DNA from: an uncultured Chloroflexia bacterium
Lineage (GTDB): Bacteria > Chloroflexota > Limnocylindria > QHBO01
NCBI GenBank assembly: GCA_963825525.1
Contig: CAWGTN010000002.1
Coordinates: forward strand, 800,001 to 864,000
Direction: 5' to 3'
DNA: 64,000 nucleotides
The translations under genes were made by a program, and so were the position numbers. Below the pieces are notes generated by a model. The model was not told the origin of the DNA. It worked only from the letters and a program-made list of their open reading frames with translations, and made no database searches. Numbering within the stretch: the first letter of the stretch is position 1; each line of letters starts with the position of its first letter. Below are positions 38,546-51,640 of this stretch, piece by piece.

Positions 38546-39018
38546 CCCCCGAGCGCGATCGTCACGGCCACCTGGTTGCTGTACGCGCTCGTCCAGCCGG
38601 GCGACAGCGAGCGCACGACGTAGTAGTAGGTCGTGAGCGTCGAGAGCGCCCCGTTGTCCGTCCAGCTCGCCGTGGTCCGACCCGCGGCCGTCGCCACGAG
38701 CACGTAGCCTGACCCATTCGTCGTGGAGCGCCACACCTCGTACCCGGTGGCGAAGGCGTCGGGCGTCGGGGTCCACGACAGCTGCGGACGCGAGACGAGT
38801 CCGGCCGTGCAGATCACGAGGGTCGCGGCGCACGTGACGTTGGACGGCGGATCGAGTACCTGGACCGAGGACGTTACCGGCTGGGCCCCGACACTCGAGA
38901 ACGCCGCCATGGAGCTGTTGCCGCCACCGGAGAAGGCGACCGCGACGAGCACGGCGACGCCGAGCCAGCTCGCGAGGCGTCGCCGGCCGCGGGTGTGCCA
39001 GGTGGATACCGGGTCCAT
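38542..39018 (-). CDS. Secreted protein with SipW-type signal peptide and fibronectin-III-like domain
   Basis: TM then SSMAAFSS; LSWTP, GYEVWRS, YYYVVRS. Confidence 0.7.
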   Translation of the reverse strand: MDPVSTWHTRGRRRLASWLGVAVLVAVAFSGGGNSSMAAFSSVGAQPVTSSVQVLDPPSNVTCAATLVICTAGLVSRPQLSWTPTPDAFATGYEVWRSTTNGSGYVLVATAAGRTTASWTDNGALSTLTTYYYVVRSLSPGWTSAYSNQVAVTIALGG

Positions 39019-39163
39019 GCGGCTTCGAGTGTCGGGCGCCTCAGCGCCGAGCGAAACCCATCGATGCGCCGTGGATCGCCACCGATGGTCCTATTGGTCG
39101 CCGTGCGCGCGTGCCCCACGCTGGAGCCAAGACATTCGTCACTTTGCGGGGAGACTCCACTCG

Positions 39164-39766
39164 ATGGTCACCAAGACCACCTCCATGCGCGAGCGTGCGC
39201 TCGCGTTCCTTCTTCCGGGTGTTGCCATGGTCGGCATCGGGGCCGGCAGCCTCAGCCTCGCGCTGTTCACCGACAGCGCCAGCGTCGACGGGACGTTCAC
39301 GGCAGGCACGATCAGCCTCGACCCCAGCGACGTCGCATCGCTGTCGCTCTCGTCCGGCGCGCTGCTGCCCGGCGACGTGCTGACCGACGACGTCACGATC
39401 ACGAACGACGGCACCGCCGAGCTGCGCTACAGCGTCGCGACCTCGAGCACGAACGCCGACACCCTCGCGCTGCGCGACGTCCTGACGCTGACCGTGCGCG
39501 AGGTCGACACAACGACGCCCGTCACGCCCTGCAACGACTTCGACGGCACGCTGGTCGTCGCACAGACGGCCTTCGGGGCCAGCTCGGTCGGCATCGGCGA
39601 TGCCACCGCAGGCGAGCAGGCCGGTGACCGCACCCTGGCTGCCGCCAGCAGCGAGACGCTCTGCTTCCGCATGAGCCTCCCGTCGGCGACCGGCAACGCC
39701 TACCAGGGCGCGACGACCACTACGACGTTCACCTTCAACGCCGAGCAGACCGCCAACAACCCGTAG
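39164..39766 (+). CDS. TasA/camelysin-like fibre protein with SipW-dependent signal peptide
   Basis: SLALFTDS...FTAGTI, LLPGD, NDGT..LRY, GNAYQG.....TFTFNAEQ; adjacent to sipW. Confidence 0.8.
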   Translation: MVTKTTSMRERALAFLLPGVAMVGIGAGSLSLALFTDSASVDGTFTAGTISLDPSDVASLSLSSGALLPGDVLTDDVTITNDGTAELRYSVATSSTNADTLALRDVLTLTVREVDTTTPVTPCNDFDGTLVVAQTAFGASSVGIGDATAGEQAGDRTLAAASSETLCFRMSLPSATGNAYQGATTTTTFTFNAEQTANNP

Positions 39767-40367: not shown

Positions 40368-40409
40368 CGACCACCTGACGGCTAAAGCTCGCCAGTCCAC
40401 CAGCCCCAG

Positions 40410-40429
40410 TACCTTGACACGCCAAGGTA
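40410..40429. promoter_or_regulatory. Putative PadR operator
   Basis: TACCTTG-N6-CAAGGTA overlapping TAGTAT -10 just upstream of the padR ATG. Confidence 0.6.
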
Positions 40430-40441
40430 GTATTGCCGAGG

Positions 40442-40783
40442 ATGGACGAGACGAAACGCATCGCCCTGCGCAAGGGCCTGCTCGAGTACCTGATTCTCGC
40501 GATCGCCTCGAACGACCGCGTCTACGCCGCCGACATCCTGGAACGCCTCCAAACGACCGACTTCGCCACCCAGGAGGGAACGCTCTATCCCCTGCTGAGC
40601 AAGATGCGCAGGGAGCAGCTGCTGGACTACGAGTGGCGCGAGTCGGCCTCCGGGCCGCCGCGCAAGTACTACGGGCTCACGGATGCCGGCCGAACGCAGC
40701 TGACCGGCTTCCGAGCGTATTGGGGGTCGATCAACCACCTCATCGACGAACTGGGCAGGAGCCACCATGCACCGAGTGATTGA
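40442..40783 (+). CDS. PadR family transcriptional regulator
   Basis: LRKGLLEYLIL, EGTLYPLL, W.ES.SGPPRKYY. Confidence 0.9.
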   Translation: MDETKRIALRKGLLEYLILAIASNDRVYAADILERLQTTDFATQEGTLYPLLSKMRREQLLDYEWRESASGPPRKYYGLTDAGRTQLTGFRAYWGSINHLIDELGRSHHAPSD

Positions 40784-41303
40784 CATCAGCCTGGCCGGGC
40801 ACCCCGCCCCGTTCCGGCTCCACGACGACGCCTACGACATGCTCCAGCGCTACCTCGAGGGCGCGCGGTCCGGACTGGCCGACGAGGCCGATCTGGCCGA
40901 AGTCATCGACGATCTCGAGCGATCCATCGGCGAGAAGCTGACGGCCGGCTTGAACAACGACCGAGGGGTGGTCAGCTCGACGCAGATGCTTTCCGTGCTC
41001 GACGAGATGGGGACGGTCGAGCCGGGCACGCCTCCCCTGTCGGCGCCGACTCCGGCGGCACCGGGCACGGGGCGCCGCCGTCTCCTGCGCATCCGGAAAG
41101 GCCAGGAGGTAGCGGGCGTATGTAACGGCCTCGCCGAGTACTCGGGGTCCAACCTCACCCTGGTCCGGTGGATCTTTGCCCTCCTCACGATCTTCACCGG
41201 CGGACTGTTCGGCCTCGTCTACCTGGTCGCCATGTTCATCCTGCCGATCGTCGAGACGCACGCCGACTTCCGCGCAGCGCAGCCGATCGCCAAGGTGGCG
41301 TAA
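40767..41303 (+). CDS. PspC domain-containing membrane protein
   Basis: DDAY..L..YL N-terminus; AGVCNGLAEY...VRWIF PspC domain. Confidence 0.85.
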   Translation: MHRVIDISLAGHPAPFRLHDDAYDMLQRYLEGARSGLADEADLAEVIDDLERSIGEKLTAGLNNDRGVVSSTQMLSVLDEMGTVEPGTPPLSAPTPAAPGTGRRRLLRIRKGQEVAGVCNGLAEYSGSNLTLVRWIFALLTIFTGGLFGLVYLVAMFILPIVETHADFRAAQPIAKVA

Positions 41304-41379
41304 GCGCGTCGGCAGGGCCTCGGACGACCGCCGGCTCAGACCTTGGGCCGGCTCCAGCCCCTCAGGAGGATTTCGAACC

Positions 41380-41895
41380 TTGGGCCTTCCGCGATCGGTC
41401 ATAGCCGCGACACTGAGCATCTGCCTGGCCAGCTGTTCGGCCGCCACTCAGACTCCGGAGGTGTGCCGAGGTGTGCCTGCGGACCTCGGCGGCTGTGATG
41501 AGAATCAGCCCACGTTCTCAGGCACGACGTGTTCGGAGGTCGGGATGCAATTCGGTGAGCAGCTGGATCGGCGATTGGTGGCCGTCATAGACGGCCCGGC
41601 GATTGTCGATGGTCGCGCACGATCGTCACAGGCCCTGGCGTTCACGATTCTGGTGACCCAGCGTGCGAATGAGTACCTGCGCGGCGCCGGGATGGTTCAG
41701 GCCTGTGACGCCGACGAGTTCATGCTGGCGGCGGAAGAGGCATTCACGGATCAACTGATAGATCACGCTGGCTCACTCGTGTCCGAGATCGAGCCACATG
41801 ACTATGAGGACTGGCTGGCCGATCTCCGAGAAGTCGTGCAAGTCATCGATCAGGACGAAGGTCTTCCGTACGAGGGCGTCACTCCATCGGCCTGA
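41380..41895 (+). CDS. Hypothetical lipoprotein
   Basis: AGGAGGA RBS, TTG start, lipobox LASC; codon usage less GC-biased than host genes. Confidence 0.65.
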   Translation: MGLPRSVIAATLSICLASCSAATQTPEVCRGVPADLGGCDENQPTFSGTTCSEVGMQFGEQLDRRLVAVIDGPAIVDGRARSSQALAFTILVTQRANEYLRGAGMVQACDADEFMLAAEEAFTDQLIDHAGSLVSEIEPHDYEDWLADLREVVQVIDQDEGLPYEGVTPSA

Positions 41896-41951
41896 CGGGA
41901 TGCTTGCCGGCACGCCGCTCATGCCGAGTACCCAGAAAGCGCGGTGGGACG

Positions 41952-41983
41952 CGGCAACTTCAGCGCGCTCTATCTACTACCCC
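41952..41983 (+). repeat. Orphan right-end terminal inverted repeat of a second element
   Basis: CGGCAACTT-cagcg-CGCTCTATCTACTACCCC; matches 48148-48178 and is the reverse complement of 41998-42029 outside the 5-bp spacer. Confidence 0.85.
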
Positions 41984-41997
41984 TACCCTCGATTGAG
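41984..41997 (+). repeat. 14-bp target-site duplication, left copy
   Basis: TACCCTCGATTGAG, identical to 48179-48192. Confidence 0.9.
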
Positions 41998-42199
41998 GGG
42001 GTAGTAGATAGAGCGGCCCAAAGTTGCCGGTTCAGGTTGCGAACACATCCGAGAGAACTACGTCCCATCGCTCAGACCGTGGTGACCCGGCCTCGGCCGA
42101 CCTCCTCGCCGCACGTCCGAACCGCAAGACGCTAACAAGGCGTAGCCGTCAGCCGAGGCGCACTGCTCCTGGACTCGGGCGGCCGTGTCGATCGTGCGG

Positions 42200-42510
42200 G
42201 CAACCACCGGGATCCGCCGATCTCGGTGATCGTGCCGGCATGGGCTTGCGGGCACGCTTCTTCTTGGCCGGGTAAGGCTACGGCAGCGGCTCAGTGAGCG
42301 ACGATTTGCCATTTGCGTCCACGAACCAAGCGATCTGGTCGTAGAACTGCCCCTCGTCCGCGTCCCGAAGGATGGTCCTCGGCAGAGTCTCGAGCTTCGT
42401 AGGCGGCTCGCGCCGGGGCGCCACGAAGGCCTGGTACAGCGGATCGTCCTTTGCGGGTCGATGTTGTCCTCGCCGAGGACCATCAAGTTCTCGCCGAACC
42501 GTCGCCGCCG
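42200..42510 (-). pseudogene. Fragment of an unidentified gene
   Basis: Protein-like stretch RRFGENLMVLGEDNID / AKDDPLYQAFVAPRREPPTKLETLPRTILRDADEGQFYDQIAWFVD, broken by a frameshift and a stop, no start. Confidence 0.4.
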
Positions 42511-42518
42511 TCCCCTGC

Positions 42519-43367
42519 CTACCGCCCGACCTCGAGCTGGCGTGCTCCGTTCACGCCGTACGTGACCTTGATAGTGGACTCGCTGAACGTGGCCTGACAT
42601 CCGGCGGTGCAGTCGGCGTCGTCGACATTCGCATCGACAAATTTGGCGGCCTCGCTGTCTTCGCCGCCCAGCAGCGCACTCGCCAGCGCGTTGAATAGTG
42701 GTTTGGCAAGACCCTTATCGATACCTGAGTCGTCGGCAGAGATGACGGCACTGGTTATGCCATCGACATAGTCGGTGGCCCAATAGGCAGCGTTGACCAT
42801 GTACGAGACATCACCATCAGATCCTTGACAGTCAAGGCCATAAGTCGCGCCCATCTCAGGGGATTGAGCATATGACTGGCATTCAAGCCCGAATTCTGCA
42901 GCAGCCGCGGCGACATCGAAGATAGTCGCGCCCGCGACGCCTGCAGGCCTTGGTGGAATGGAGGCATCAGCACCTGGCAACTCGCCCGCAATCTCCGGGG
43001 ACGAAGGCGCAGTTGGCTCTGGCGTAGCCGCGGAGGGACTCGCGCCGTTCGACGGGGCTGGCGCCAGGGACTCCTCAGGCGCTGGAGTGGCTGAGGGCGC
43101 GGGAGCAACGCTGGACGGCTGCGCCTGACTAGGAGACGCCGGCGGTCCGAATCCAACACCCAAGTTCGCTGCCCAGTTGAGCGCCGTCGCTGACAACACG
43201 GCTGCCACGACGATCGTCGCGACAGCAGGCACCACGGGCCACCATGGACGTCGCGAGCGATCAGTGAAGCGCGCAAGATCCAGGCTAGGCGCACGGCGAG
43301 CCCCACTGTCCGCGTACCTCCGCAGCCGTTCGCCCAATACCTGATCCGGATTCGGGGAGTCGCTCAT
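42519..43367 (-). CDS. Putative membrane anti-sigma factor
   Basis: ATGA-coupled to the ECF gene; one TM, Ser/Pro/Ala linker, Cys-containing ectodomain. Confidence 0.7.
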   Translation of the reverse strand: MSDSPNPDQVLGERLRRYADSGARRAPSLDLARFTDRSRRPWWPVVPAVATIVVAAVLSATALNWAANLGVGFGPPASPSQAQPSSVAPAPSATPAPEESLAPAPSNGASPSAATPEPTAPSSPEIAGELPGADASIPPRPAGVAGATIFDVAAAAAEFGLECQSYAQSPEMGATYGLDCQGSDGDVSYMVNAAYWATDYVDGITSAVISADDSGIDKGLAKPLFNALASALLGGEDSEAAKFVDANVDDADCTAGCQATFSESTIKVTYGVNGARQLEVGR

Positions 43368-43894
43368 GACAGATCCTTTCGCAACCTACTTACTGCGCGT
43401 GAAGTGCGAACCCTTGCCCCTGATGGGGACAGGCCCGTGGCTCTAGCGATTTCGGCGGACGTCCAACCCAACACGAACTTGAGGGCCAACACCTGGCGGT
43501 CGAGCGCGCTCAGGCGAGCAAGGGCGGCGGCAAGATCCGGGTCCGCGTAACGGTCAGCTGAACTAATGGCCGCCGTGGGATCGTCCAGCGTAGTCTCGCG
43601 TGCCGTTCGCCTGTTGCGCGATCGACGATGCTCACGGGCTCTATTGCACGCGATCGCGGTGACCCATGCTCGGAATCGTTCGGGCTCGTTGAGCTGTTTG
43701 CGGCGCGACCACGCGGTGTCCCAAGCGTCTTGAACCGCCTCCCTAGCCGCAGTGGAATCGCCGGTAATTACGAAGCAGGCGCGGACCAAATCGACGTCGT
43801 ACGCCAGGACCAACTGCGTAAACGCAGCATGGTCGCCATGCGCTGCGCGCCTTGCGAGGGACACCGAAGGGGACTGCTCCGTACTGATCGCCAC
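43364..43894 (-). CDS. ECF RNA polymerase sigma factor (alternative start 43912)
   Basis: AREAVQDAW..AW, FRAWV..IACN, SAEIA..TG.S....RVR.SRA; TGAAAC-N16-GCATCTA promoter just upstream. Confidence 0.88.
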   Translation of the reverse strand: MAISTEQSPSVSLARRAAHGDHAAFTQLVLAYDVDLVRACFVITGDSTAAREAVQDAWDTAWSRRKQLNEPERFRAWVTAIACNRAREHRRSRNRRTARETTLDDPTAAISSADRYADPDLAAALARLSALDRQVLALKFVLGWTSAEIARATGLSPSGARVRTSRAVSRLRKDLS

Positions 43895-44004
43895 GGGTAG
43901 TAGATGCCTCACCTGCTGGAAGTGTTTCAGCCTCGCTCGAGCCTGATCGAGCCCTCAACGTGGCTCCTTCCGCGTATTAGAGATCAGGGGAGGAGCAGCG
44001 CAAG

Positions 44005-44018
44005 TAGGGATTCTCCTA
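44005..44018. promoter_or_regulatory. Putative LuxR/NarL-type operator
   Basis: Imperfect palindrome TAGGGATTCTCCTA upstream of the M23 gene. Confidence 0.4.
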
Positions 44019-44109
44019 ATTGCGATGAGACCGATCCGCTCACAGGCTCACCTTTGCGGCCAAGTGCCGCGCAACAGTGCACGGGAAGCAGAGGACGGAG
44101 GACGGTTTC

Positions 44110-45036
44110 GTGCGTCGCAGAGTACGAGCACTATCGGTGAGCTTGGTCGTCGCGGTAGCGCTGCAAGTGCTGACCGTGGCAGCCGTCAGCGCGGCAACGG
44201 GGCCGTATACGCTGCCCTTCTTCGATCCAAGCATTATCCGGACACAAAACTGTCACCAGGGCTGCGCGTACGACTATGGGATGAGCTACCAGGACGTGGC
44301 ATCGACCCGGCAGGGTGTCGTTGCCTTTGTCGTTACTGGCAACGGCGTCGGCGAGTGCAATCCGAACACGACGAAGAAGGCCAACTACGTCTTCATACGG
44401 CACAGTGATAACCAGCACACCCTCTACTACCACCTCAGTACCGTGAGCGTCGCGCAGGGGCAACTGGTATCGGCCGGTCAAAAGATTGGCGTCTCCGGCG
44501 CGTCGGGGTACTCGTGCGGTGCACACCTCCACTACGTTCTCTACTCAAGCGCTACCCGCTCGGACGCCACATCATTGGTCCCAGATGGACGGTGGACTAC
44601 TTCTCCGGGGCGTGTTCCCTGGCTGGCCAGGTATGTCACAGAGGCGAGCCCTAGTGGGTATACCAGGCTGGGCGGGACTACATGGACCACTTGGGTTGAG
44701 TTCCGCAACGACGGCGGACGCACCTGGGACTGGCAGAACGACAGTTATGGGCGAGCAAGAGTGTTTCTTTCCGCGGTGAACTCGACCGGCACGGCGACGC
44801 GCAACAGCAGCTTCTACGTTTCGGGAGACTGGTCGTCGGCCTACGAGGCTACTATGGCCGATGTCGATGACATCGCTCCTGGCGTTACAGCGCGTTTCAC
44901 CTTCAAGCTCAAGGCACCTTTGGCCGGGGGGACCTTCACCGAACGCTTCAGTCTGCGGGCTAACAGCCTTTGGTGGTTCAACTACGCCACTCTCGGGAAT
45001 TACTACATCCCAATCTCGGTGACCCATTGCTGCTGA
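44110..45036 (+). CDS. Secreted M23 metallopeptidase with C-terminal Ig-like domain
   Basis: GGAGGA RBS; signal peptide; YYHL..V.V..GQ.V..GQ.IG.SG.SG...GAHLHY; WVEFRNDG..TW Ig-like domain. Confidence 0.82.
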   Translation: MRRRVRALSVSLVVAVALQVLTVAAVSAATGPYTLPFFDPSIIRTQNCHQGCAYDYGMSYQDVASTRQGVVAFVVTGNGVGECNPNTTKKANYVFIRHSDNQHTLYYHLSTVSVAQGQLVSAGQKIGVSGASGYSCGAHLHYVLYSSATRSDATSLVPDGRWTTSPGRVPWLARYVTEASPSGYTRLGGTTWTTWVEFRNDGGRTWDWQNDSYGRARVFLSAVNSTGTATRNSSFYVSGDWSSAYEATMADVDDIAPGVTARFTFKLKAPLAGGTFTERFSLRANSLWWFNYATLGNYYIPISVTHCC

Positions 45037-45125
45037 GGGCTTCGTTTCCTCGGGGCGCGGGGAAGTCGTTCGCATTCGCACCCCGAGCGTCCAGCCCGCT
45101 TACAGCGGACACAACGTGCGTGGCG

Positions 45126-45812
45126 TTAGGGCGACGGAGTGGCCCCGGGGAAGGCAGGTACTCGGTCCCCTAGGAGTGAATTACTGCTTGCCCGGTGGTA
45201 GAAGGAAATGGGCACGTCCAGCCAACGCCCGCGGTGTGCTTTGACGGCGAGCTCCGTTCTTGACAGCGAACTCGTTCTGGCGAGGAGGCGCGATAGGTGG
45301 GCCTCAACGGTCTTGTGGCTGATGTTGAGGGCAAATGCGATCTCGTCGTTGGTCCGGGCGTCCACAACCCGCTCCAGCACCGCTCGTTCCCGTGGGCTCA
45401 AGCGCAAATAGTCCTCAGGCCCACCGAGCACATCAGCTTCGTATGCCGCCTCGCCGCGTGCCACCCGGGCAAGTGCTGCGATCATCTGCGAGGGACCGTA
45501 TGACTTGAGGAGAAAGCCGGCAGCACCGAGACGGAGGCTTGCCTGTGCGATATGGGGGGCCGCCGTTGCGGAGACCAACACCACGGCTGGTGGTGGCGAC
45601 CGGCGAGCGGCCTCAGCCAGCAAGTCGAAACCGGTCCCGTCAGGCAGGTGAAGAGCGCTGACAACAATCCGTATCCCGGCGTGCATCGACCTTCGGGCGT
45701 CCGCGAAGGTCGCGCATCTGGCGGTCACACGCATGTGTGACGTTGAGTGGATAGCCGAAGCGAGGCCTTCCAGAAAGAACGGTTGATCGTCGACCACCAC
45801 TACATGGCTCAT
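45126..45812 (-). CDS. Orphan NarL/LuxR response regulator; phosphoacceptor Asp apparently replaced
   Basis: VVVVDDQ, VVSALHLPDG (Ala at the Asp position), GFLLK, LSPRE...TNDEIA..L.IS.KTVE.H. Confidence 0.82.
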   Translation of the reverse strand: MSHVVVVDDQPFFLEGLASAIHSTSHMRVTARCATFADARRSMHAGIRIVVSALHLPDGTGFDLLAEAARRSPPPAVVLVSATAAPHIAQASLRLGAAGFLLKSYGPSQMIAALARVARGEAAYEADVLGGPEDYLRLSPRERAVLERVVDARTNDEIAFALNISHKTVEAHLSRLLARTSSLSRTELAVKAHRGRWLDVPISFYHRASSNSLLGDRVPAFPGATPSP

Positions 45813-46045
45813 GGGGGGTCGCCGCGCTACTCCAGGATGTTGCACAACCGCTGTTATGGCACCCGGCCGCTTACCAGCCACTAGTGCGGCAGCGGACGGA
45901 AAGGGGAAGCCCGCCTATTCGGGGAAGTGGAGGCGCGCTCGGCGGCTTCGGTCGCGGGTGGACTGCTCGGGAAAGTGTCCATGCCCAATCTCCCCACCGT
46001 GGTCTCATGACATGAGACCATCGCGAGCGACAATGCGCTTGCTCG

Positions 46046-48133
46046 TTGCCGATTGTCAATAAGCAATACTTGACACTTCAGCTCCCGCCGGAAAAGGAGT
46101 GGTCGCACCTTGTTAGACCGTCGATCGCTCCTCACGAGCAGAACCACGACCGAGGTCCCTTCGATGCGTTGGTTGATCTCGTCCGCGACGGTGCGGCGGC
46201 GCTCGTCGCCAACGACGTGCCGATCGGCGAGGTGTATGGCGCACTGTGGTCGAGGGAGTTCCCGGTATTCCATCGAATCGCGTTGCACTTGCTTAGCGAG
46301 AACCCGACGCTCGCCCCCGAGGAAACTCGATCCGCCGTGCTGAATATCGACAGCTTCTACAACTCAGCGGTGCTGCACGAGTACACGGAGCTTGTAAGAG
46401 CTTCGTACGGTGTGCTCGACCAGGAGGCTCGGAGGTCCTACCTGCGGTTGATCGGCAACGGTTCACGGGACTCGGACATGACGGAGGAGCAGGCTGACTA
46501 TTGGCGATTGGTGCGTTACGCAGTCATCGTCGACGACCTAGCAGGCGAGGATCGCGCTACCTACGAACGACTAGAGAGCCGGTTCGGCAAGGTCGACGAA
46601 CCATATATGCCTTTTCACTCGCGATCGTGGCGCGGGCCAACAAGCCCCCGTAGTCCCGCAGAGCTCGCCAACATGACTATCGAGGAGATCGTCGACTACG
46701 TCCAAACGTGGAAGGCCCCCGATGGGCCGTTTGACCATAGCGAGGAAGGCCTAGGTCGAGCTATCGCATCCGCGATAGGCGATGACCCCACTCGCTTCGC
46801 TACCGCTGCGGTGGAGTTCCTTCGGCTCCCAGCCGCCTATGGACGTAGTGTGGTGAGCGGGCTGCGCGACGCCATACGAGCAGAGCAGACCTTTGAATGG
46901 CAACCGGTTCTACAGCTCTGCGAATCGCTCATCAGTCCGGACGAGTCGTCCGACGAGACGAGGTGGACACGACGGGAAATAGGGCACCTGATCGAGCAAG
47001 GGATGGCGGACGGACCGACTCAGATACCGGCCGACCTGTGGCCAGTCGCGTGGAGGGTAATCACACGACTGGCAGCGGACTTGGAGCCAGATCTCGAATA
47101 CGAAGGGCGGTATGGGGAAGACAACATGGATCCATACACGCTGTCCATCAACACGGTTCGGGGGCAGGCTATCCATGCAGCCATCGCATTTGCCCTTGCC
47201 GGACATCGTGCATCGGATAGCGCCGGCCGTCCCTGGTCGCTGCCTTCCGAAATTCGCGAGTTCTTCGAAAGGCATGTTGATCCAGCGCGAGATCCGTCTC
47301 CCGCCATTCAATCGGTGTTTGGTGCTCTCTTACCGCAGGTCCAACTCCTTGATCCTGTGGGATTCGAGAGCCTGACTAGAAGACTCTTTTCTAACGATCA
47401 CGCGCTGATAACACGGGCCGCGGGGGAGGCCTACCTTGTATTCGCGCGGCCGTATCGGGCCGTGTACCCCCACGTCGACCACCTGTATCTAGCCTCAGCG
47501 CAGTCGTGGGAAGGCTCGGGCTGGCGCTGGATGCGCTCGCCGAGTGAAGGACTGGTCAGCCACCTGGTCACGTACTACCTGATCGGTGTTATCGATCTGC
47601 AGGGTGGATCGCCTCTGCGTCTCTTGCTCGACAATGCGAGCGCGGAGACGAGGGCCGAAGTCATCGAGCATGTCGGTCGCATAGTGCGCGACGAGGAGCA
47701 TCCACTTAGGCCGGACCAACTTGCGCTCTGTCAGGCGCTGTGGCTTGACCGCCTGAACGCCGCACATCGGGACCGCGAGCACGTGCGAGCAGAACTTTCA
47801 CAGTTCGGATGGTGGTTCTCGTCTACGCAACTTGATTCCGGATGGGTACTGGAGAATGCCTTGGCCGTATTGGGTCTCGGCGTGTCCCTTGATCCCGAGT
47901 TCGCTGTCTTTCCCCGGCTTGCGGAACTTGCACCATCGCATCCGCGAGAGGCGATCCGAGTCGTGTCGGAGACCGTCGACCTCGAGCACGAGATGTGCCG
48001 CGTCCACAGCGAGCGGGATCACATCCGAGACATCGTCGCAACTGCACAAGCCAGTGACGACCCTGACGCGCGCCAAGGGGCAAGTGACGTTCTCAATCAG
48101 CTCGCGGCGCGGGGAATCAGCCTCGAACCTTGA
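46046..48133 (+). pseudogene. Probably 5'-truncated remnant of a large alpha-helical hypothetical protein
   Basis: 695-codon open frame without a convincing RBS or start; protein-like from ~46080 (RPSIAPHEQN, GPTSP, SINTVRG); stops 14 bp before the right TIR. Confidence 0.6.
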
Positions 48134-48178
48134 TATCCGTGGGCCGGCGGCAACTTCGTAGCGCTCTATCTACTACCC

Positions 48179-48192
48179 TACCCTCGATTGAG
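48179..48192 (+). repeat. 14-bp target-site duplication, right copy
   Basis: TACCCTCGATTGAG, identical to 41984-41997. Confidence 0.9.
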
Positions 48193-48217
48193 GGCCCGCC
48201 GAGCCCTGTGCTATCCT
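48188..48217 (+). promoter_or_regulatory. Sigma70-type promoter of the T-box/tRNA/GNAT/leuS transcript
   Basis: TTGAGG (48188-48193), N18, extended -10 TG-C-TATCCT (hexamer 48212-48217). Confidence 0.6.
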
Positions 48218-48394
48218 CGGCCGCGAACGCGTCGACGCGGGAGCAGTACGCGCTGCGCCTCGTTCACAGCGAGCCGGGATGGGTGGAAGCCGGCGAACCG
48301 AGGAGCGCGGAACTCACCTGCCGAGCAGTCCGGGCGAGGAGTCCGACCGGGTGGCGCCCGATACCACGCCGACGAGTGGACCGATGAAATTCGT

Positions 48395-48470
48395 GGGGTT
48401 GTAGCTCAGCTGGGAGAGCACCTGCATGGCATGCAGGGGGTCGGGGGTTCGAGTCCCCCCAGCTCCACCA
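48395..48470 (+). tRNA. tRNA-Ala (anticodon GGC), nested in the T-box leader
   Basis: 76-nt cloverleaf; GGGGTTG/CAGCTCC acceptor with G3:U70; CCTGC-ATGGCAT-GCAGG arm; CCA end. Confidence 0.97.
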
Positions 48471-48520
48471 TCCTCTACCGAAGAGGCATCGGCCAAGCTC
48501 AGGTGGTACCGCGGAGATGT

Positions 48521-48556
48521 GAGCCCCTTCGTCCCGAGCAGACGGAGGGGTTTGTC
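48521..48556 (+). terminator. T-box attenuator terminator
   Basis: GAGCCCCTTCGTC-ccgagca-GACGGAGGGGTTT; its 5' arm can alternatively pair with the T-box. Confidence 0.8.
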
Positions 48557-48572
48557 GTGTCTGGAGAACCTG

Positions 48573-49133
48573 ATGATCATGACCGGGAACGGCGAGGCGA
48601 AGACGGCGCGGGACGGCCGGCGCTGGACGATGCGTCCGGGTCGCCCGACTGACGGCCGCGCGCTGGCCCGGCTGTTCGCCGAGGTGCGCGAGGAGGGCCG
48701 CTGGCTGATCACCACCCCGGGCTCGGTCAGCGAGCCGTCGGAAGCGTTCTGGATCAGCGAGCTGATCCGGGCTTCGGAACACCTGGCCCTGGTGGCCGAG
48801 GTGGACGGGGAGGCGATCGGAAACGTGCTGGTCAGCGTCGATCGAGGGCGCGCAACCGAGCACATCGGCGTGCTCTCGATCTGCATCGGGCGCGACTGGC
48901 GCGACGTCGGGATCGGCAGTGAGCTGGTCGGGGCCGCCCAAACATGGGCGCGCGAGCGGGGCCTGCGCAAGATCTCACTCGGCGTCTTTCCCGACAACGA
49001 GCGTGCGATTGCCGTCTACGAGCGCCGCGGGTTCGTCCGCGAAGGCGTTCGCCGCATGCAATATCGATCGGGCGACGAGTACCGCGACGAGGTGCTGATG
49101 GCCTGGTTCCCGCAGGAGGCTGAGGACCGATGA
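48573..49133 (+). CDS. GNAT N-acetyltransferase (YhhY/AaaT-like)
   Basis: WRDVGIGSELV, LGVFPDNERAIAVYERRGF; ATGA-coupled to leuS. Confidence 0.85.
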   Translation: MIMTGNGEAKTARDGRRWTMRPGRPTDGRALARLFAEVREEGRWLITTPGSVSEPSEAFWISELIRASEHLALVAEVDGEAIGNVLVSVDRGRATEHIGVLSICIGRDWRDVGIGSELVGAAQTWARERGLRKISLGVFPDNERAIAVYERRGFVREGVRRMQYRSGDEYRDEVLMAWFPQEAEDR

Positions 49134-51640
49134 CGACCGAGAGCGAAACCGCCGCCCGAGCCGGGCGCTCGCGCTTCGATCCGGCATCGTACGAATCGAA
49201 GTGGCGCGAACGCTGGGCCGCGGACGAGCTGTACGTGGCACGGGACGACGACCCGCGTCCGAAGCGCTACGTCCTGACGATGTACCCGTATCCGTCGGGC
49301 GACCTCCACATCGGCCACTGGTATGCGGCGACCGGGCCCGACATCTATGCCCGTATGCAGCGGATGCGCGGTGACAACGTCATGTTCCCGATGGGCTTCG
49401 ACAGCTTCGGGCTGCCCGCCGAGAACGCCGCCATCGACCGGAACATTCACCCGGCCACCTGGACGGCGGCGAACATCGAGCGCATGCGGACCCAGTTCCG
49501 CAGCATGGGTGCGATGTTCGACTGGTCGCGCGAGCTCGCAACCTCGGACCCCGACTACTACCGCTGGACGCAGTGGATCTTCCTCCAGTTCTTCAACGCG
49601 GGGCTCGCCTACCGGGCCATGGCGCCGGTGGACTGGTGCCCGAAGGACCAGGTCGTGCTGGCGCGCGAGCAGGTCGAGGGTACGGATCGGCACTGCTGGC
49701 GCTGCGGCACGCCGGTCATCAAGCGCGACCTCGAGCAGTGGTGGTTCCGCATCACGAACTACTCCGACGAGCTGCTCGACTTCAGCGGCCTCGATTACCC
49801 CGAGCCGATCAAGCTCATGCAGACGAACTGGATCGGCCGCTCGGAGGGGGCGGAGATCGACTTTCCCACCGAGGCCGATGATGTCGAGCCGATCCGCGTC
49901 TTCACCACGCGGCCGGACACGGTGTTCGGTGCCACGTTCATGGTGCTGGCGCCGGAGCACCCGCTCGTCGCAACCCTCACGACCGAGGATCGGCGAGCGG
50001 AGGTCGACGCCTACGTGGCCACGGCGCGGCGAGAGACCGAGATCGAGCGCATGAACACCGAGCGCGAGAAGACCGGGGTCTTCATCGGCGCCTATGCGGT
50101 CAACCCGATGACGAATGAGCGGATCCCGATCTGGATCGCCGACTACGTGCTGCCCGGCTACGGAACGGGGGCGATCATGGCCGTCCCCGCCCACGACGAG
50201 CGTGACTATGAGTTCGCGACGAAGTTCGACCTGCCCATCCGATACGTCGTGGCACCTCCGTCCGGCGAGGTGCCCGATGGCCGGGCCCTTGTCTCGCACG
50301 CCGCCGACGAGGTGCTCATCGACTCCGGCGAATTCACCGGGATGCGAGCCGAGGACGCGATCGGCGCGATCACGAAGTCACTCGAGGAGTCCGGGCGCGG
50401 GCAGATGGCGGTCACGTACCGTCAACGCGATTGGCTCGTCAGCCGGCAGCGGTACTGGGGCGCGCCGATCCCGATCGTGTACTGCGAGGAGCATGGCGCG
50501 GTCCCGGTGCCCGAGGATCAGCTGCCGATCGTGCTGCCCGAGGACGTGGACTTCGCGCCGACCGGCGTCTCGCCGCTCCAGTCGCATGCCGAGTGGCTGG
50601 CCGCGGAGTGCCCGACCTGCGGTGGGCCGGGGCGCCGTGAGACCGATACCCTCGACACGTTCATCGATTCGAGCTGGTATTTCCTCCGCTACTGCTCGCC
50701 GCACGACCGAGAGCGAGCCTGGAACCAGGACGAGGTTGCGGCATGGATGCCGATCGACCTCTACACCGGCGGCGCCGAGCACGCGGTCATGCACCTGATG
50801 TACTTCCGGTTCTTCGTGAAGGCCCTGCGTGACCTCGGACACCTGACGATCGACGAGCCGACGATGAGGCTGCGGAACCAGGGCCAGATCCTGGGCGCCG
50901 ATCACAACCGGATGAGCAAGTCACGCGGCAACGTCCAGGCGCCTGACGAGCTCGTCGAGCGCTACGGGTCCGACACGGTGCGCGCCTTCCTGATGTTCAT
51001 CGGGCCGTGGGACCAGGGCGGACCCTGGAACCCCACCGGCATGGAGGGCATTCACCGCTGGCTGGGACGGGTGTGGGGAGCCGCGCTGCCAGAGGAACGT
51101 CGCCGCGCCGCAGGAGGCCAGGCGCCGGGAACGTCGGAGGACCTGGAGCGCGCACTTCGCCGCGTGACCCACGCGACGGTCGCTGCAGTGACGGACGATT
51201 ACACCGGCCTGCGCTTCAACACCGCGATTGCCAAGCTCATGGAGCTGACGAACGCGATCATCCGCGCCCGCGAAGCGGGCCAGGCTCAGTCGGGCGCCTA
51301 CGCCGACGCCGTCGACACGCTGCTCCTGCTGCTCGCGCCGCTCACCCCGCACATCGCGGAGGAGCTGTGGGAGCGACGGGGCGGCACGTACAGCGTGCAT
51401 CAGCAGGCCTGGCCGGAGGCCGATCCGGCACTGGTCGCATCCGACGTGGTCGAGCTGCCGATCCAGGTGGACGGCAAGCTGCGTGATCGGCTGGTGGTGA
51501 ACGCCGATACGCCCGCCGAGGAGATCGAGCGCCTGGCGCTCGCCTCCGATCATGTCCAGCGCTACCTGGCCGGGCGTGCGCCCCGACGGGTGATTCAGAT
51601 CCCCGGGAAGCTCGTGAATATCGTCACGCCACGGGACTGA
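49130..51640 (+). CDS. leuS: Leucine--tRNA ligase
   Basis: MYPYPSGDLHIGH, FTTRPDT, GTGAIMAVPAHDERD, SRQRYWG, RMSKS. Confidence 0.97.
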   Translation: MTTESETAARAGRSRFDPASYESKWRERWAADELYVARDDDPRPKRYVLTMYPYPSGDLHIGHWYAATGPDIYARMQRMRGDNVMFPMGFDSFGLPAENAAIDRNIHPATWTAANIERMRTQFRSMGAMFDWSRELATSDPDYYRWTQWIFLQFFNAGLAYRAMAPVDWCPKDQVVLAREQVEGTDRHCWRCGTPVIKRDLEQWWFRITNYSDELLDFSGLDYPEPIKLMQTNWIGRSEGAEIDFPTEADDVEPIRVFTTRPDTVFGATFMVLAPEHPLVATLTTEDRRAEVDAYVATARRETEIERMNTEREKTGVFIGAYAVNPMTNERIPIWIADYVLPGYGTGAIMAVPAHDERDYEFATKFDLPIRYVVAPPSGEVPDGRALVSHAADEVLIDSGEFTGMRAEDAIGAITKSLEESGRGQMAVTYRQRDWLVSRQRYWGAPIPIVYCEEHGAVPVPEDQLPIVLPEDVDFAPTGVSPLQSHAEWLAAECPTCGGPGRRETDTLDTFIDSSWYFLRYCSPHDRERAWNQDEVAAWMPIDLYTGGAEHAVMHLMYFRFFVKALRDLGHLTIDEPTMRLRNQGQILGADHNRMSKSRGNVQAPDELVERYGSDTVRAFLMFIGPWDQGGPWNPTGMEGIHRWLGRVWGAALPEERRRAAGGQAPGTSEDLERALRRVTHATVAAVTDDYTGLRFNTAIAKLMELTNAIIRAREAGQAQSGAYADAVDTLLLLLAPLTPHIAEELWERRGGTYSVHQQAWPEADPALVASDVVELPIQVDGKLRDRLVVNADTPAEEIERLALASDHVQRYLAGRAPRRVIQIPGKLVNIVTPRD

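Follow-up and report, generated by a model that had tools for sequence, protein, structure and literature searches.

Casposases make target-site duplications (TSDs) of 14-15 bp and integrate artificial cargo flanked by terminal inverted repeats (TIRs), as described in PMC6614799. Tandem casposons and solo TIRs are among the arrangements reported from Methanosarcina (PMC4779613). The TIR of M. mazei is described as beginning with GGGATATAGG and being accompanied by a 14-bp TSD, and a mini-casposon was seen to enter the MetMaz-C1 TSD in vivo, giving a tandem (PMC10359463). In the literature consulted, we found no report of natural non-autonomous casposons, of casposons in Limnocylindria, or of -35-directed insertion, and no mention of Chloroflexota casposons of the kind described below. 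Here we analyze a 64,000-nucleotide stretch of DNA from an uncultured Limnocylindria bacterium (hereafter the window), in which positions 41998-48178 very probably represent a non-autonomous derivative of a casposon family living in Limnocylindria (Chloroflexota).

The 14-mer TACCCTCGATTGAG is found on the forward strand at 41984-41997 and 48179-48192, where it abuts the outer edges of two inverted arms; with up to one mismatch allowed, these are its only two occurrences in the window, against 0 expected (100 shuffles). The left TIR (arm B, 41998-42029, + strand) reads GGGGTAGTAGATAGAGCG-N5-AAGTTGCCG, and the right TIR (arm C) lies at 48148-48178 on the - strand. The 32-bp arms are 87% complementary, the mismatching part being the five central bases only, and the 18-mer arm end has three matches in the window (0.03 expected). 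The exact direct repeat measures 17-19 bp because it runs into the G/C runs; a GGG start of the TIR with 15 duplicated bp and a GGGG start with 14 fit equally well. The right arm ends in CCC, not CCCC. The initial annotation had read these three C's correctly and had suspected a homopolymer error; this is probably not the case, since a Logan contig of 244 bp, built from a public run that may share its sample with the assembly, has 0 differences from window 47963-48206, CCC included. A 572-bp Logan contig, to which the same caution about the sample applies, has 0 differences from 41775-42346 and spans the left repeat junction. The G+C content of the interior is 0.62, compared with approximately 0.70 outside. 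The exact 14-bp duplication at the edges, the inverted repeats of about 32 bp with their N5 centre and the lower GC of the interior had all been proposed in the initial annotation, and each is borne out here.

Beside the left arm, approximately 0.5 kb contains no convincing ORF. The genes to its right begin with a single-pass membrane protein (42519-43367, - strand), whose start overlaps the stop of an ECF-type sigma factor gene (43364-43912, - strand; Sigma70_r2 and r4_2). The two had been annotated as an ECF/anti-sigma pair; the first half of this reading holds by its domains, while the membrane protein is a putative anti-sigma factor by position only, lacking both a Pfam match and a zinc anti-sigma motif. 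They are followed by an M23 peptidase gene (44077-45036, + strand; PF01551, E 6e-17), a response regulator gene with REC and LuxR/GerE HTH domains and no adjacent kinase (45126-45881, - strand), and a 5'-truncated Dsr1-like defence gene (46046-48133, + strand). The 695 amino acid product of the latter covers only 552-1008 of the 1227 positions in the Dsr1 model, and most of its homologues are 900-1190 amino acids long, with 220-450 further N-terminal residues. None of the 10 interior ORFs scanned matches a transposase or integrase family, and no trace of cas1 or polB is found inside the element (best tblastn E 0.13). The peptidase, the orphan regulator, the truncation and the absence of transposase, integrase and PolB agree with what had been noted earlier. 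The 6.2-kb element is single-copy. No cargo relatives appear among the matches listed from 40 relatives, one metagenome scan gave no relative of the element, and comparison of the cargo with 146 fetched loci gave weak similarity of the ECF factor and the regulator only (25-31%), with no second cargo copy.

The last five bases of the right-hand duplication copy lie inside the -35 box of a predicted host promoter (48188-48217, + strand), which consists of TTGAGG (48188-48193), a spacer of 18 nt with TGC at its end, and the -10 box TATCCT (48212-48217). This copy keeps the predicted promoter whole. Of 16 loci from relatives, 15 have TTGAG at the corresponding position, always with TATCCT or TACCCT after it, and in 12 of all 16 loci homology resumes at 48182-48188. 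The first gene downstream is a tRNA-Ala(GGC) (48395-48470, + strand), followed by a GNAT acetyltransferase ORF and leuS; the insertion is approximately 200 bp upstream of the tRNA gene and not in its 3' end. The initial annotation had placed it before a leuS T-box. We reject this target: the Rfam T-box match scores 44 bits against a threshold of 93 and overlaps the tRNA gene, and what was targeted is a -35 box, in the promoter ahead of tRNA-Ala. Empty sites, which had been anticipated, are present in relatives. In genomes G014 and G016, no more than 66-88 unaligned bp separate the PspC-domain gene from the same promoter, with arms absent, and G017 joins window 40371 to 48185. Arms occur in none of the 16 loci at the relatives' version of this promoter.

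A third arm (arm A, 41952-41983, - strand), overlooked in the initial annotation, lies directly to the left of the left 14-mer. It has 0 mismatches to the TIR pattern and pairs with arm B at a distance of 14 nt, the whole left junction being a 78-bp arm(-)-14-arm(+) palindrome (inverted repeat I1). From this one arm and the base composition, we infer that an earlier element at the same site, which we call E1, has left its decayed right end in 41952-41983 and the approximately 0.65-0.7 kb adjoining on the left. Its putative remnant (41304-41951), foreign-looking DNA of low GC3, begins right after the stop codon of the host PspC-domain gene (TAA, 41301-41303); GC3 falls from approximately 41300, homology to G014 and G016 ends at 41259 and 41252, respectively, and a variant contig in run X1 departs from the window after 41307. 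The remnant contains a lipoprotein ORF (41380-41895, + strand) that has a signal peptide with lipobox (LASC) and, at 41364, the ribosome-binding site AGGAGG. The left end and left duplication of E1 are gone, and the copy at 41984-41997 would be common to E1 and the 6.2-kb element. Tandem arm(-)-14/15-arm(+) junctions are also seen at three other loci (L055, L056 and L059).

What do the same arms enclose elsewhere? Of 401 genomes sampled from the class, 46 contain the bipartite repeat GGGTAGTAG[A/T]TAGAGCG-N5-AAGTTGCCG. The backwards control of the motif gives 0 matches in all 401; a separate scan of the window's own genome gave 1+2 control matches, which a renewed scan of the window did not reproduce. 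A scan of 185,579 species genomes yields 48 stretches with the arm motif, recorded as Limnocylindria or Limnocylindrales (17), Chloroflexota, Chloroflexi or Chloroflexia (27), Anaerolineaceae (1), Dormiibacterota (2) and Steroidobacteraceae (1). At two loci the arms bound not a DDE transposase, but Cas1 together with PolB: L053 (15,414 bp; Cas1 with PF01867 at E 1e-43 and TIGR00287 at E 1e-36; a PolB of 1000 amino acids) and L056 (17,922 bp). Both are flanked by 14-15-bp direct repeats and, judged on their sequences, are true casposons. The invariant residues E180, H263, D275 and E278 are kept in all eight aligned Cas1 proteins; the casposases of this family are extended at the C-terminus by approximately 190 residues, in which a CxxC...C pattern is conserved. 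In the PDB the closest match to Cas1 is 6opm (E 3e-23), labelled only as Cas1 in the PDB table; we take it for the casposase of M. mazei. The consensus of 25 polymerase homologues contains Exo I-III and motifs A (DxxSMYP), B (KxxxNxxYG) and C (DTD). PF03175 is matched by 15 of the 25 and other polymerase families by none, while PDB sequence searches gave no match; the assignment as PolB rests on the motifs and on mostly sub-threshold Pfam matches.

Complete paired-arm elements number 14 in the 21 sources examined. Two have both genes, one has a polB fragment (L062), one keeps only the last approximately 80 residues of Cas1 (L067), and ten, including the window element, have neither gene and range from 1.2 to 8.4 kb. 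The Cas1-less L054 has type I restriction-modification cargo in common with the autonomous L056, at 72-75% nucleotide identity. In the window's own genome, which is 92% complete, neither protein queries nor PF01867 found Cas1 or PolB, and a helper may be missing from the assembly. The central inference of the initial annotation, a casposon derivative without Cas1, is upheld by the Cas1 and PolB bounded by these arms in relatives, by the empty sites and by the independently built Logan contig across the junction.

The family appears to share a target preference. TTGA[CG] stands at the expected place in 53 of 63 unique arms and is absent in 10, and TAnnnT is found 16-19 nt beyond it in 25 of 27 promoter-side flanks against 0.6 expected, these flanks not being independent events, as target sites are often orthologous between genomes. 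At least five distinct promoter classes are hit. These observations suggest that the family inserts at -35 boxes of host promoters.

How does the element compare with known casposons in its features and their published descriptions? Like family 2 (MetMaz-C1, Aciduliprofundum boonei), it has TIRs, a 14-15-bp duplication and, in autonomous relatives, a Cas1-type casposase; site-specific insertion, tandem arrays with one TSD and solo-TIR remnants are described there as well (PMC4779613, PMC6614799, PMC10359463), and the M. mazei TIR likewise is given as starting with GGG. Unlike family 2, the window element lacks cas1 and polB, its host is a bacterium and not a euryarchaeon, its target is a -35 box instead of a tRNA 3' end or IR1 site, and the PolB of its relatives matches the protein-primed-type PF03175, whereas that of family 2 is reported to be RNA-primed. 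Family 3 shares bacterial hosts and intergenic insertion (PMC4779613), but the hosts named there are Streptomyces, several Proteobacteria and Ca. Acetothermum, and its PolB too is described as RNA-primed, in contrast to the PF03175 matches found here. Family 1 (thaumarchaeal) is described with a protein-primed-type PolB as in our elements, but has archaeal hosts, targets the 3' end of the aEF-2 gene and has a casposase described as lacking a C-terminal extension (PMC8464041), unlike the casposases found here. Artificial mini-casposons, with a resistance gene between TIRs, have the same TIR-cargo-TIR plan without cas1, with casposase acting in trans, and are described as integrating in vitro (A. 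boonei, N. koreensis) and in vivo (M. mazei). They are laboratory constructs, whereas the window element and at least nine others occur naturally, with host-type or defence genes as cargo. MITEs and other non-autonomous DDE derivatives have likewise kept their ends and lost the enzyme, and such copies outnumber autonomous ones; Tn7-like pile-ups also reuse one site and build a small island (an analogy drawn in PMC4779613). Here, in contrast, Cas1 takes the place of DDE or TnsABC enzymes, the duplication measures 14-15 bp, and most copies hold one or several genes, unlike empty MITEs.

The element could also have landed as a complete casposon that later lost cas1 and polB by internal deletion and gene replacement, and thus be a dead casposon that never moved without Cas1. 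The truncated gene and the ORF-poor stretch at the left arm are signs of decay, L067 and L062 resemble deletion intermediates, L054 has cargo homologous to that of an autonomous element, and neither a helper nor a second copy was found. Yet the two TIRs and the duplication remain perfect with no cas1 or polB remnant between them, and a loss would have to have been clean and recent. Moreover, Cas1-less elements of 1.2-3.8 kb with varied cargo occupy the same type of site in many genomes, which movement in trans explains more easily; a Cas1 match at E ≤ 1e-10 is missing from 35 of the 46 genomes with arms, a weak argument given that these are incomplete metagenome-assembled genomes (MAGs). Loss in place is a serious possibility that, on balance, we doubt. 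That the 6.2-kb unit travelled in its present Cas1-less form is, in our judgment, an evenly balanced proposition: the missing cas1 and polB traces are compatible with either route, and the single copy of the element, with no second copy of the cargo found, leaves movement in trans a candidate route.

It is very improbable that the block is an integrative island of a tyrosine or serine recombinase, with the 14-mer as att core, the arms as recombinase-binding sites and arm-14-arm as an attP-like structure. The palindromic junction, the 46-49-bp direct repeats flanking the block and the nearby tRNA gene would suit such an island, but the insertion is upstream of the tRNA and integrase families are absent from the scanned ORFs. 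The duplications vary between loci and have only the terminal TTGAC/G in common, and were therefore made on insertion instead of being a core common to element and target. We consider it extremely improbable that the block is a DDE transposon (Tn3-family, IS4/IS1634-type or a cargo derivative) whose ends start with GGGG by chance. Tn3-family ends do begin with GGGG, and an element without a transposase cannot by itself reveal its family; however, the Tn3 target duplication is 5 bp, whereas exact repeats of 14-15 bp flank 11 of the 14 paired elements (they are imperfect in the other three), Cas1 and PolB are the only enzymes common to elements with these arms, and transposase and integrase families are absent among their scanned ORFs. 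We give as little credence to the arms being host operators just upstream of -35 boxes, two of which enclose a foreign block by chance. Their fixed distance of 9-10 nt from a -35-like TTGAC with a properly spaced -10 would agree with operators, but the same promoter lacks the arm in relatives, and the arms form inverted pairs around unrelated DNA with a directly repeated flank. In addition, at 20 arms the duplicated TTGAC lies directly against the G-run, on the side opposite to the flanks scored for a -10, and the window's own left copy has no -10 after it. Finally, a chimeric join or collapsed repeat can practically be dismissed, even though the genome is a MAG and assemblers are known to fail at palindromic junctions, as the Logan contigs agree with both ends and independent MAGs have the same architecture.

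By analogy with assayed casposases, a casposase would have joined the 3' ends of both TIRs to the two target strands 14-15 bp apart, and gap repair would then have doubled TACCCTCGATTGAG. The target would be the 9-10 bp upstream of the -35 TTGAG, together with TTGAG itself, in the promoter before tRNA-Ala. This site may have been used earlier by E1, the second insertion producing a tandem array with one common duplication. The two 32-bp TIRs would have been kept as the substrate of the family's Cas1-type integrase (casposase), with the interior 6.1 kb being unrelated cargo. With no casposase found in the genome, the element would be stranded at present unless a helper casposon comes in. A 6.2-kb foreign block between casposon ends, with neither Cas1 nor polymerase, suggests that natural hitch-hiker casposons exist.

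The 6.2-kb element (41998-48178) lies between two exact copies of a 14-mer, TACCCTCGATTGAG, which occurs in the window only at 41984-41997 and 48179-48192 when one mismatch is allowed (0 expected from 100 shuffles). The repeat reaches 17-19 bp once the runs of G and C are counted, and its 14-bp core is exact. Directly inside both 14-mers are the 32-bp terminal inverted repeats (TIRs), here called arms (41998-42029, plus strand; 48148-48178, minus strand). At both ends they read GGGGTAGTAGATAGAGCG-N5-AAGTTGCCG, with differences confined to the five central bases, and show no mismatch to the motif that bounds elements with Cas1 and PolB genes in related genomes. The G+C content is 0.62 in the interior versus about 0.70 in the flanks. 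A third arm (41952-41983, minus strand), overlooked in the initial annotation, adjoins the left 14-mer on its left side, so that the left junction has the form arm(-)-14-arm(+), a 78-bp palindrome. Two Logan contigs, one of 572 bp across the palindrome (41775-42346) and one of 244 bp over the right end, match with 0 differences; the assembly itself may derive from the runs behind them. Over 40500-49500, four soil runs show no joint that skips the element, but their contigs lose rare variants and cover the region incompletely. The window's genome (2.58 Mb, four contigs, 92% complete) contains no arm besides these three. A backwards control with a shorter pattern gave 1 + 2 matches in this genome, which were not reproduced when the window was re-scanned; with a longer pattern it gave none in 401 genomes, the window's own included.

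How widespread are such arms? The pattern GGGTAGTAGATAGAGCG-N5-AAGTTGCCG (up to three mismatches) occurs in 46 of 401 genomes sampled from the class Limnocylindria, and its backwards control in 0 of 401. Arm-bearing genomes are unevenly spread over the families of the class (f1, 28/153; f3, 17/137; f2, 0/92; f4, 0/16; f5, 0/2); in the window's genus there are seven among 51, in addition to the window's own genome. When one genome per species (185,579 species) was scanned for exact matches, 48 stretches were returned, labelled Candidatus Limnocylindria or -ales (17), Chloroflexota, -i or -ia (27), Anaerolineaceae (1), Dormiibacterota (2) and Steroidobacteraceae (1). Three fetched loci contain arm pairs of the same orientation, 118-203 bp apart: L063 (2668/2871; +,+), L064 (6065/6267; -,-) and L065 (8117/8235; -,-). 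In L063 and L064, a separate promoter-like flank precedes each of these arms. Neither a simple element nor a tandem array accounts for the same-orientation pairs.

The initial annotation had proposed looking for a cas1 or polB gene between the same TIRs, and two loci contain both. In L053, arms 15,414 bp apart enclose genes for a 514-amino-acid Cas1 (PF01867, E-value 1e-43; TIGR00287) and a 1000-amino-acid protein; in L056, the arms are 17,922 bp apart, and between them are homologues of both and a type I restriction-modification (R-M) system. These two elements are true casposons. Residues E180, H263, D275 and E278, the Cas1 catalytic pattern, are invariant in eight aligned casposases from the class, which also have a C-terminal CxxC...C in common. 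The best PDB match of a related Cas1 is 6opm, presumably the casposase of M. mazei. A Pfam search with the C-terminal extension (approximately 190 residues) of three casposases, aimed at a helix-turn-helix or sigma-region-4-like reader of TTGAC, gave nothing at an E-value of 1 or less except a zinc-ribbon hint at 0.16. Cas1 matches (E-value 1e-10 or less) are present in 23 of the 401 class genomes. Nine of them are long, uninterrupted and 44-100% identical to the L053 query (44-53% in the eight other genomes); five, at 29-36% identity, are probably CRISPR Cas1. Within the window's genus the only match is in an unpublished genome, G310. Several casposase genes of the class contain stop codons or survive as C-terminal fragments only (G308:C2, G047, G311, G053); autonomous copies commonly decay.

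The large protein is a member of a family that numbers at least 1828 proteins. A consensus of 25 sequences contains Exo I (DxE), Exo II and Exo III and the motifs A (DxxSMYP), B (KxxxNxxYG) and C (DTD). PDB searches with the single protein and with the 25-sequence profile found no matches, nor did a search of NCBIfam, so its identity as PolB rests on these motifs and on PF03175. This protein-primed-type family is matched weakly by 15 of the 25 members (best E-value 6e-7) and other polymerase families by none, whereas family 3 casposons have an RNA-primed-type PolB according to the accessible text of PMC4779613. As for the HNH endonuclease, another family 3 feature, the only candidate seen among the L053 ORFs scanned is a protein with a GmrSD_C nuclease domain. 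This protein is one of four SLH-domain proteins (another has PD40 repeats) that are encoded together with an ion channel in the cargo of the L053 casposon (L053 1529-7830). A 165-amino-acid ORF beside polB of L053 is conserved in four loci and has no family match. At least 20 contigs are apparently common to the Cas1 and PolB match lists, a proxy for widespread cas1-polB linkage.

We searched the window and 20 fetched loci for arm pairs and found 14. Two enclose cas1 and polB (L053, L056), one a polB fragment only (L062) and one only the last 80 or so residues of Cas1 (L067). The other ten have neither gene: the window's element (6.18 kb), L054 (8.36 kb), two in L055 (3.81 kb each), L057 (2.33 kb), L059 (1.85 kb), L058 (1.56 kb), L068 (1.29 kb), L069 (1.27 kb) and L060 (1.20 kb; from the unpublished genome G115). 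Exact flanking repeats of 15-17 bp (G/C runs included), equal to a 14-15-bp duplication, flank 11 of the 14, and imperfect ones the remaining three (L062, L067, L068). Among the cargo found in Cas1-less elements are type I R-M, an ECF sigma factor, an NlpC/P60 hydrolase and a RibD_C reductase. The R-M module of L054 has 72-75% DNA identity to that of the autonomous element of L056, which shows that the L054 element descended from a full casposon. No Cas1 match was found in 35 of the 46 arm-bearing genomes, which are incomplete metagenome-assembled genomes. Had the two tandem 3.8-kb elements of L055 been copies of one Cas1-less element, they would have proved movement in trans; they have no nucleotide similarity beyond the arms.

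What does the site of the window's element look like in relatives? Homology resumes at 48182-48188 in 12 of 16 relatives' loci and at 48203-48205 in the other four, and none of the 16 (one of them, L019, from the unpublished genome G006) has an arm at this promoter. In two relatives, G014 and G016, the gene for a PspC-domain protein (window 40409-41259) is followed by 66-88 bp of unaligned DNA and then by the resumed homology. In a third, G017 (locus L006), window position 40371 is joined to 48185, and the PspC-domain gene is absent too. The empty site anticipated by the initial annotation is therefore present in these three genomes. These limits of homology place the insertion relative to the relatives at approximately 41304-48185, and GC3 likewise falls from about 41300, not from 41984. 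The insertion is the sum of an older remnant, comprising a lipoprotein ORF (41380-41895) and the solo arm, and the 6.2-kb element. A Logan contig of one run (X1) matches the window up to 41307 (C>T at 41261) and continues into unrelated sequence, showing that the left edge of the foreign block is precisely where a close strain diverges. Farther left, a 97-nucleotide "tRNA-???" with a four-base anticodon, called by ARAGORN at 39385-39481 (minus strand) within a high-GC3 coding region, is probably a false call; the ORF at 38723-39766 (plus strand) carries a signal peptide of the SipW-dependent type and weakly matches TasA-like models (TIGR04088, NF046066).

From 48186 on, the relatives conserve GATTGAGG-N17/18-TATCCT, a predicted -35/-10 promoter with an extended -10 box; TTGAG is kept in 15 of the 16 loci. 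Downstream of it are tRNA-Ala(GGC) (48395-48470), an ORF for a GNAT acetyltransferase and leuS. About 180 nucleotides between the -10 box and the tRNA gene are conserved as well. The upstream DNA differs in most of the 16 relatives, marking the site as a variable hotspot. We reject the T-box formerly placed before leuS: the Rfam match at 48223-48539 scores 44 bits against a threshold of 93 and overlaps tRNA-Ala. An Rfam tmRNA match on the tRNA-Ala gene (41 bits, threshold 47) is an artefact of the tRNA-like domain.

The flanking repeats differ from locus to locus except at their end, which excludes an att core common to the loci. The 14-15-bp repeats of L053, L056 and the window all end in TTGAC/G. 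TTGA[CG] is found at 53 of 63 unique arms, abutting the G-run at 20 and at a distance of 9-10 nucleotides at 35 (two show both); both placements are expected from a 14-15-bp duplication that ends in TTGAC. In 25 of 27 flanks of the second kind without an abutting arm, TAnnnT follows the hexamer after 16-19 nucleotides (0.6 expected). Distinct target promoters include those of tRNA-Ala (window), tRNA-Glu(CTC) (L040, L041, L043, including the autonomous element of L053), an Rrf2 regulator gene with a putative palindromic operator, and an ABC ATPase gene. Because many target sites are orthologous, these counts exceed the number of insertion events. Junctions of the abutted form arm(-)-14/15-arm(+) occur also in L055, L056 and L059. 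The promoter of the Rrf2 gene hosts several insertions (flanks of L024, L025, L027, L029, L036, L055 and L056); the palindrome after its -10 box, AATCCCGAC-N8-GTCGGGATT, is presumably the Rrf2 operator.

The cargo of the window's element begins with a single-pass membrane protein (42519-43367, minus strand), whose gene overlaps that of an ECF sigma factor (43364-43912, minus strand) and which is a candidate anti-sigma factor by position only. An M23 peptidase (44077-45036, plus strand), a REC-LuxR regulator (45126-45881, minus strand) and a Dsr1-like protein of 695 amino acids (46046-48133, plus strand) follow. Homologues of the latter are mostly 900-1190 amino acids long, with an N-terminus longer by 220-450 residues, so the window's copy is 5'-truncated; one metagenome scan for its relatives gave 119 pattern matches, none of them related. 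The ORF at 42058-42600 (minus strand), with its Arg-rich translation, looks spurious. ECF sigma factors are cargo of two unrelated Cas1-less elements (L055 10713-11264 and the window's; 31% identical), and cell-wall hydrolases recur (M23 in the window, NlpC/P60 in L055).

The autonomous casposon described by Krupovic et al. in 2014 reportedly combines a Cas1 casposase, a family-B polymerase, TIRs and a target-site duplication (TSD) of about 14-15 bp. The window's element shares the TIRs and the duplication but not the Cas1 and PolB genes; with the autonomous Limnocylindria casposons it has the end motif, the duplication length and the target motif in common. We have directly established its ends and duplication, the sites left empty in relatives, its link to the family and the -35 box as target. 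By analogy, a casposase would join the 3' ends of the TIRs to target strands 14-15 bp apart, as reported for an assayed casposase in the accessible text of PMC6614799. TIR-flanked cargo would be integrated by a casposase in trans, and re-use of a resident TSD would give tandems, as described in the accessible parts of PMC6614799 and PMC10359463 for cargo and of PMC10359463 and PMC4779613 for tandems.

That the window's element travelled as a Cas1-less unit we regard as having a roughly even chance. The initial annotation had it mobilised in trans; we found neither a helper nor a second copy, and absence in such incomplete data is weak evidence. Cas1 was found neither by protein query nor with PF01867 in the window's genome (92% complete), in a search whose positive control matched in seven of 14 known genomes, and PolB had no match there either. 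No second copy of the element was seen among the matches listed from 40 relatives, in the fetched loci or in one metagenome scan. The element may instead have lost its genes in place, which is quite possible, if well short of an even chance. In agreement with either route, its ten ORFs include no Cas1, the best tblastn match to a related casposase in 41300-48200 has an E-value of 0.13, and PolB has no match in the element. An integrative island carried by a recombinase is very unlikely, given that the flanking repeats differ between loci and that the ORFs scanned in the window's and relatives' elements include no integrase or transposase family. A Tn3-family transposon, with its 5-bp duplication and DDE transposase, is likewise very unlikely, given the 14-15-bp duplication and the same lack of a transposase family.

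TIRs, 14-15-bp TSDs, tandems, solo-TIRs and bacterial casposons in intergenic sites are already known. The literature compared includes PMC4046053, PMC4779613, PMC9939771, PMC6614799, PMC10359463, PMC9755687, PMC11551731, PMC13343696, PMC9966878 and PMC6452270, in their accessible text, with most subscription journals outside its reach. Within it we found no natural Cas1-less casposon derivatives with cargo, no casposons of Limnocylindria and no targeting of promoter -35 boxes by casposons; its Cas1-less "mini-casposons" are laboratory constructs only. The string GGGG, with which the A. boonei TIR had been said to begin, is absent from the accessible text of PMC6614799. The casposon census is small, a 2024 comparison having used 48 reference elements (PMC11551731, accessible text).

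It is tempting to join these observations in one reading, which we offer tentatively, as somewhat short of an even chance. Limnocylindria would host a large undescribed casposon family with Cas1 and a protein-primed-type PolB. Its casposase would read the -35 hexamer of tRNA-Ala, tRNA-Glu, Rrf2 regulator and ABC ATPase promoters and insert exactly 14-15 bp upstream of the hexamer's end, and the promoter would survive. Cas1-less mini-casposons would outnumber their parents, move in trans and ferry arbitrary cargo (R-M, ECF sigma modules, cell-wall hydrolases, defence genes) between genomes. If true, casposon derivatives mobilised in trans would be known from nature for the first time, as would a Cas1 integrase directed to promoters; the leader- or promoter-proximal integration of CRISPR spacers would be a parallel.

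Our results indicate that Cas1-less casposons arise in nature and outnumber autonomous ones in this class (10 of 14 complete elements examined), that their cargo is real and includes genes for restriction-modification and others of defence type, and that the integrase of the family selects the -35 box, a landmark both very short and functionally meaningful, and spares the promoter. The compact TIR pair with its defined target may be of use in engineering. The CRISPR adaptation machinery presumably descends from casposons; the family offers a directly testable system for target reading by a Cas1 integrase and possibly a natural model of how leader-proximal spacer integration arose from a transposon.
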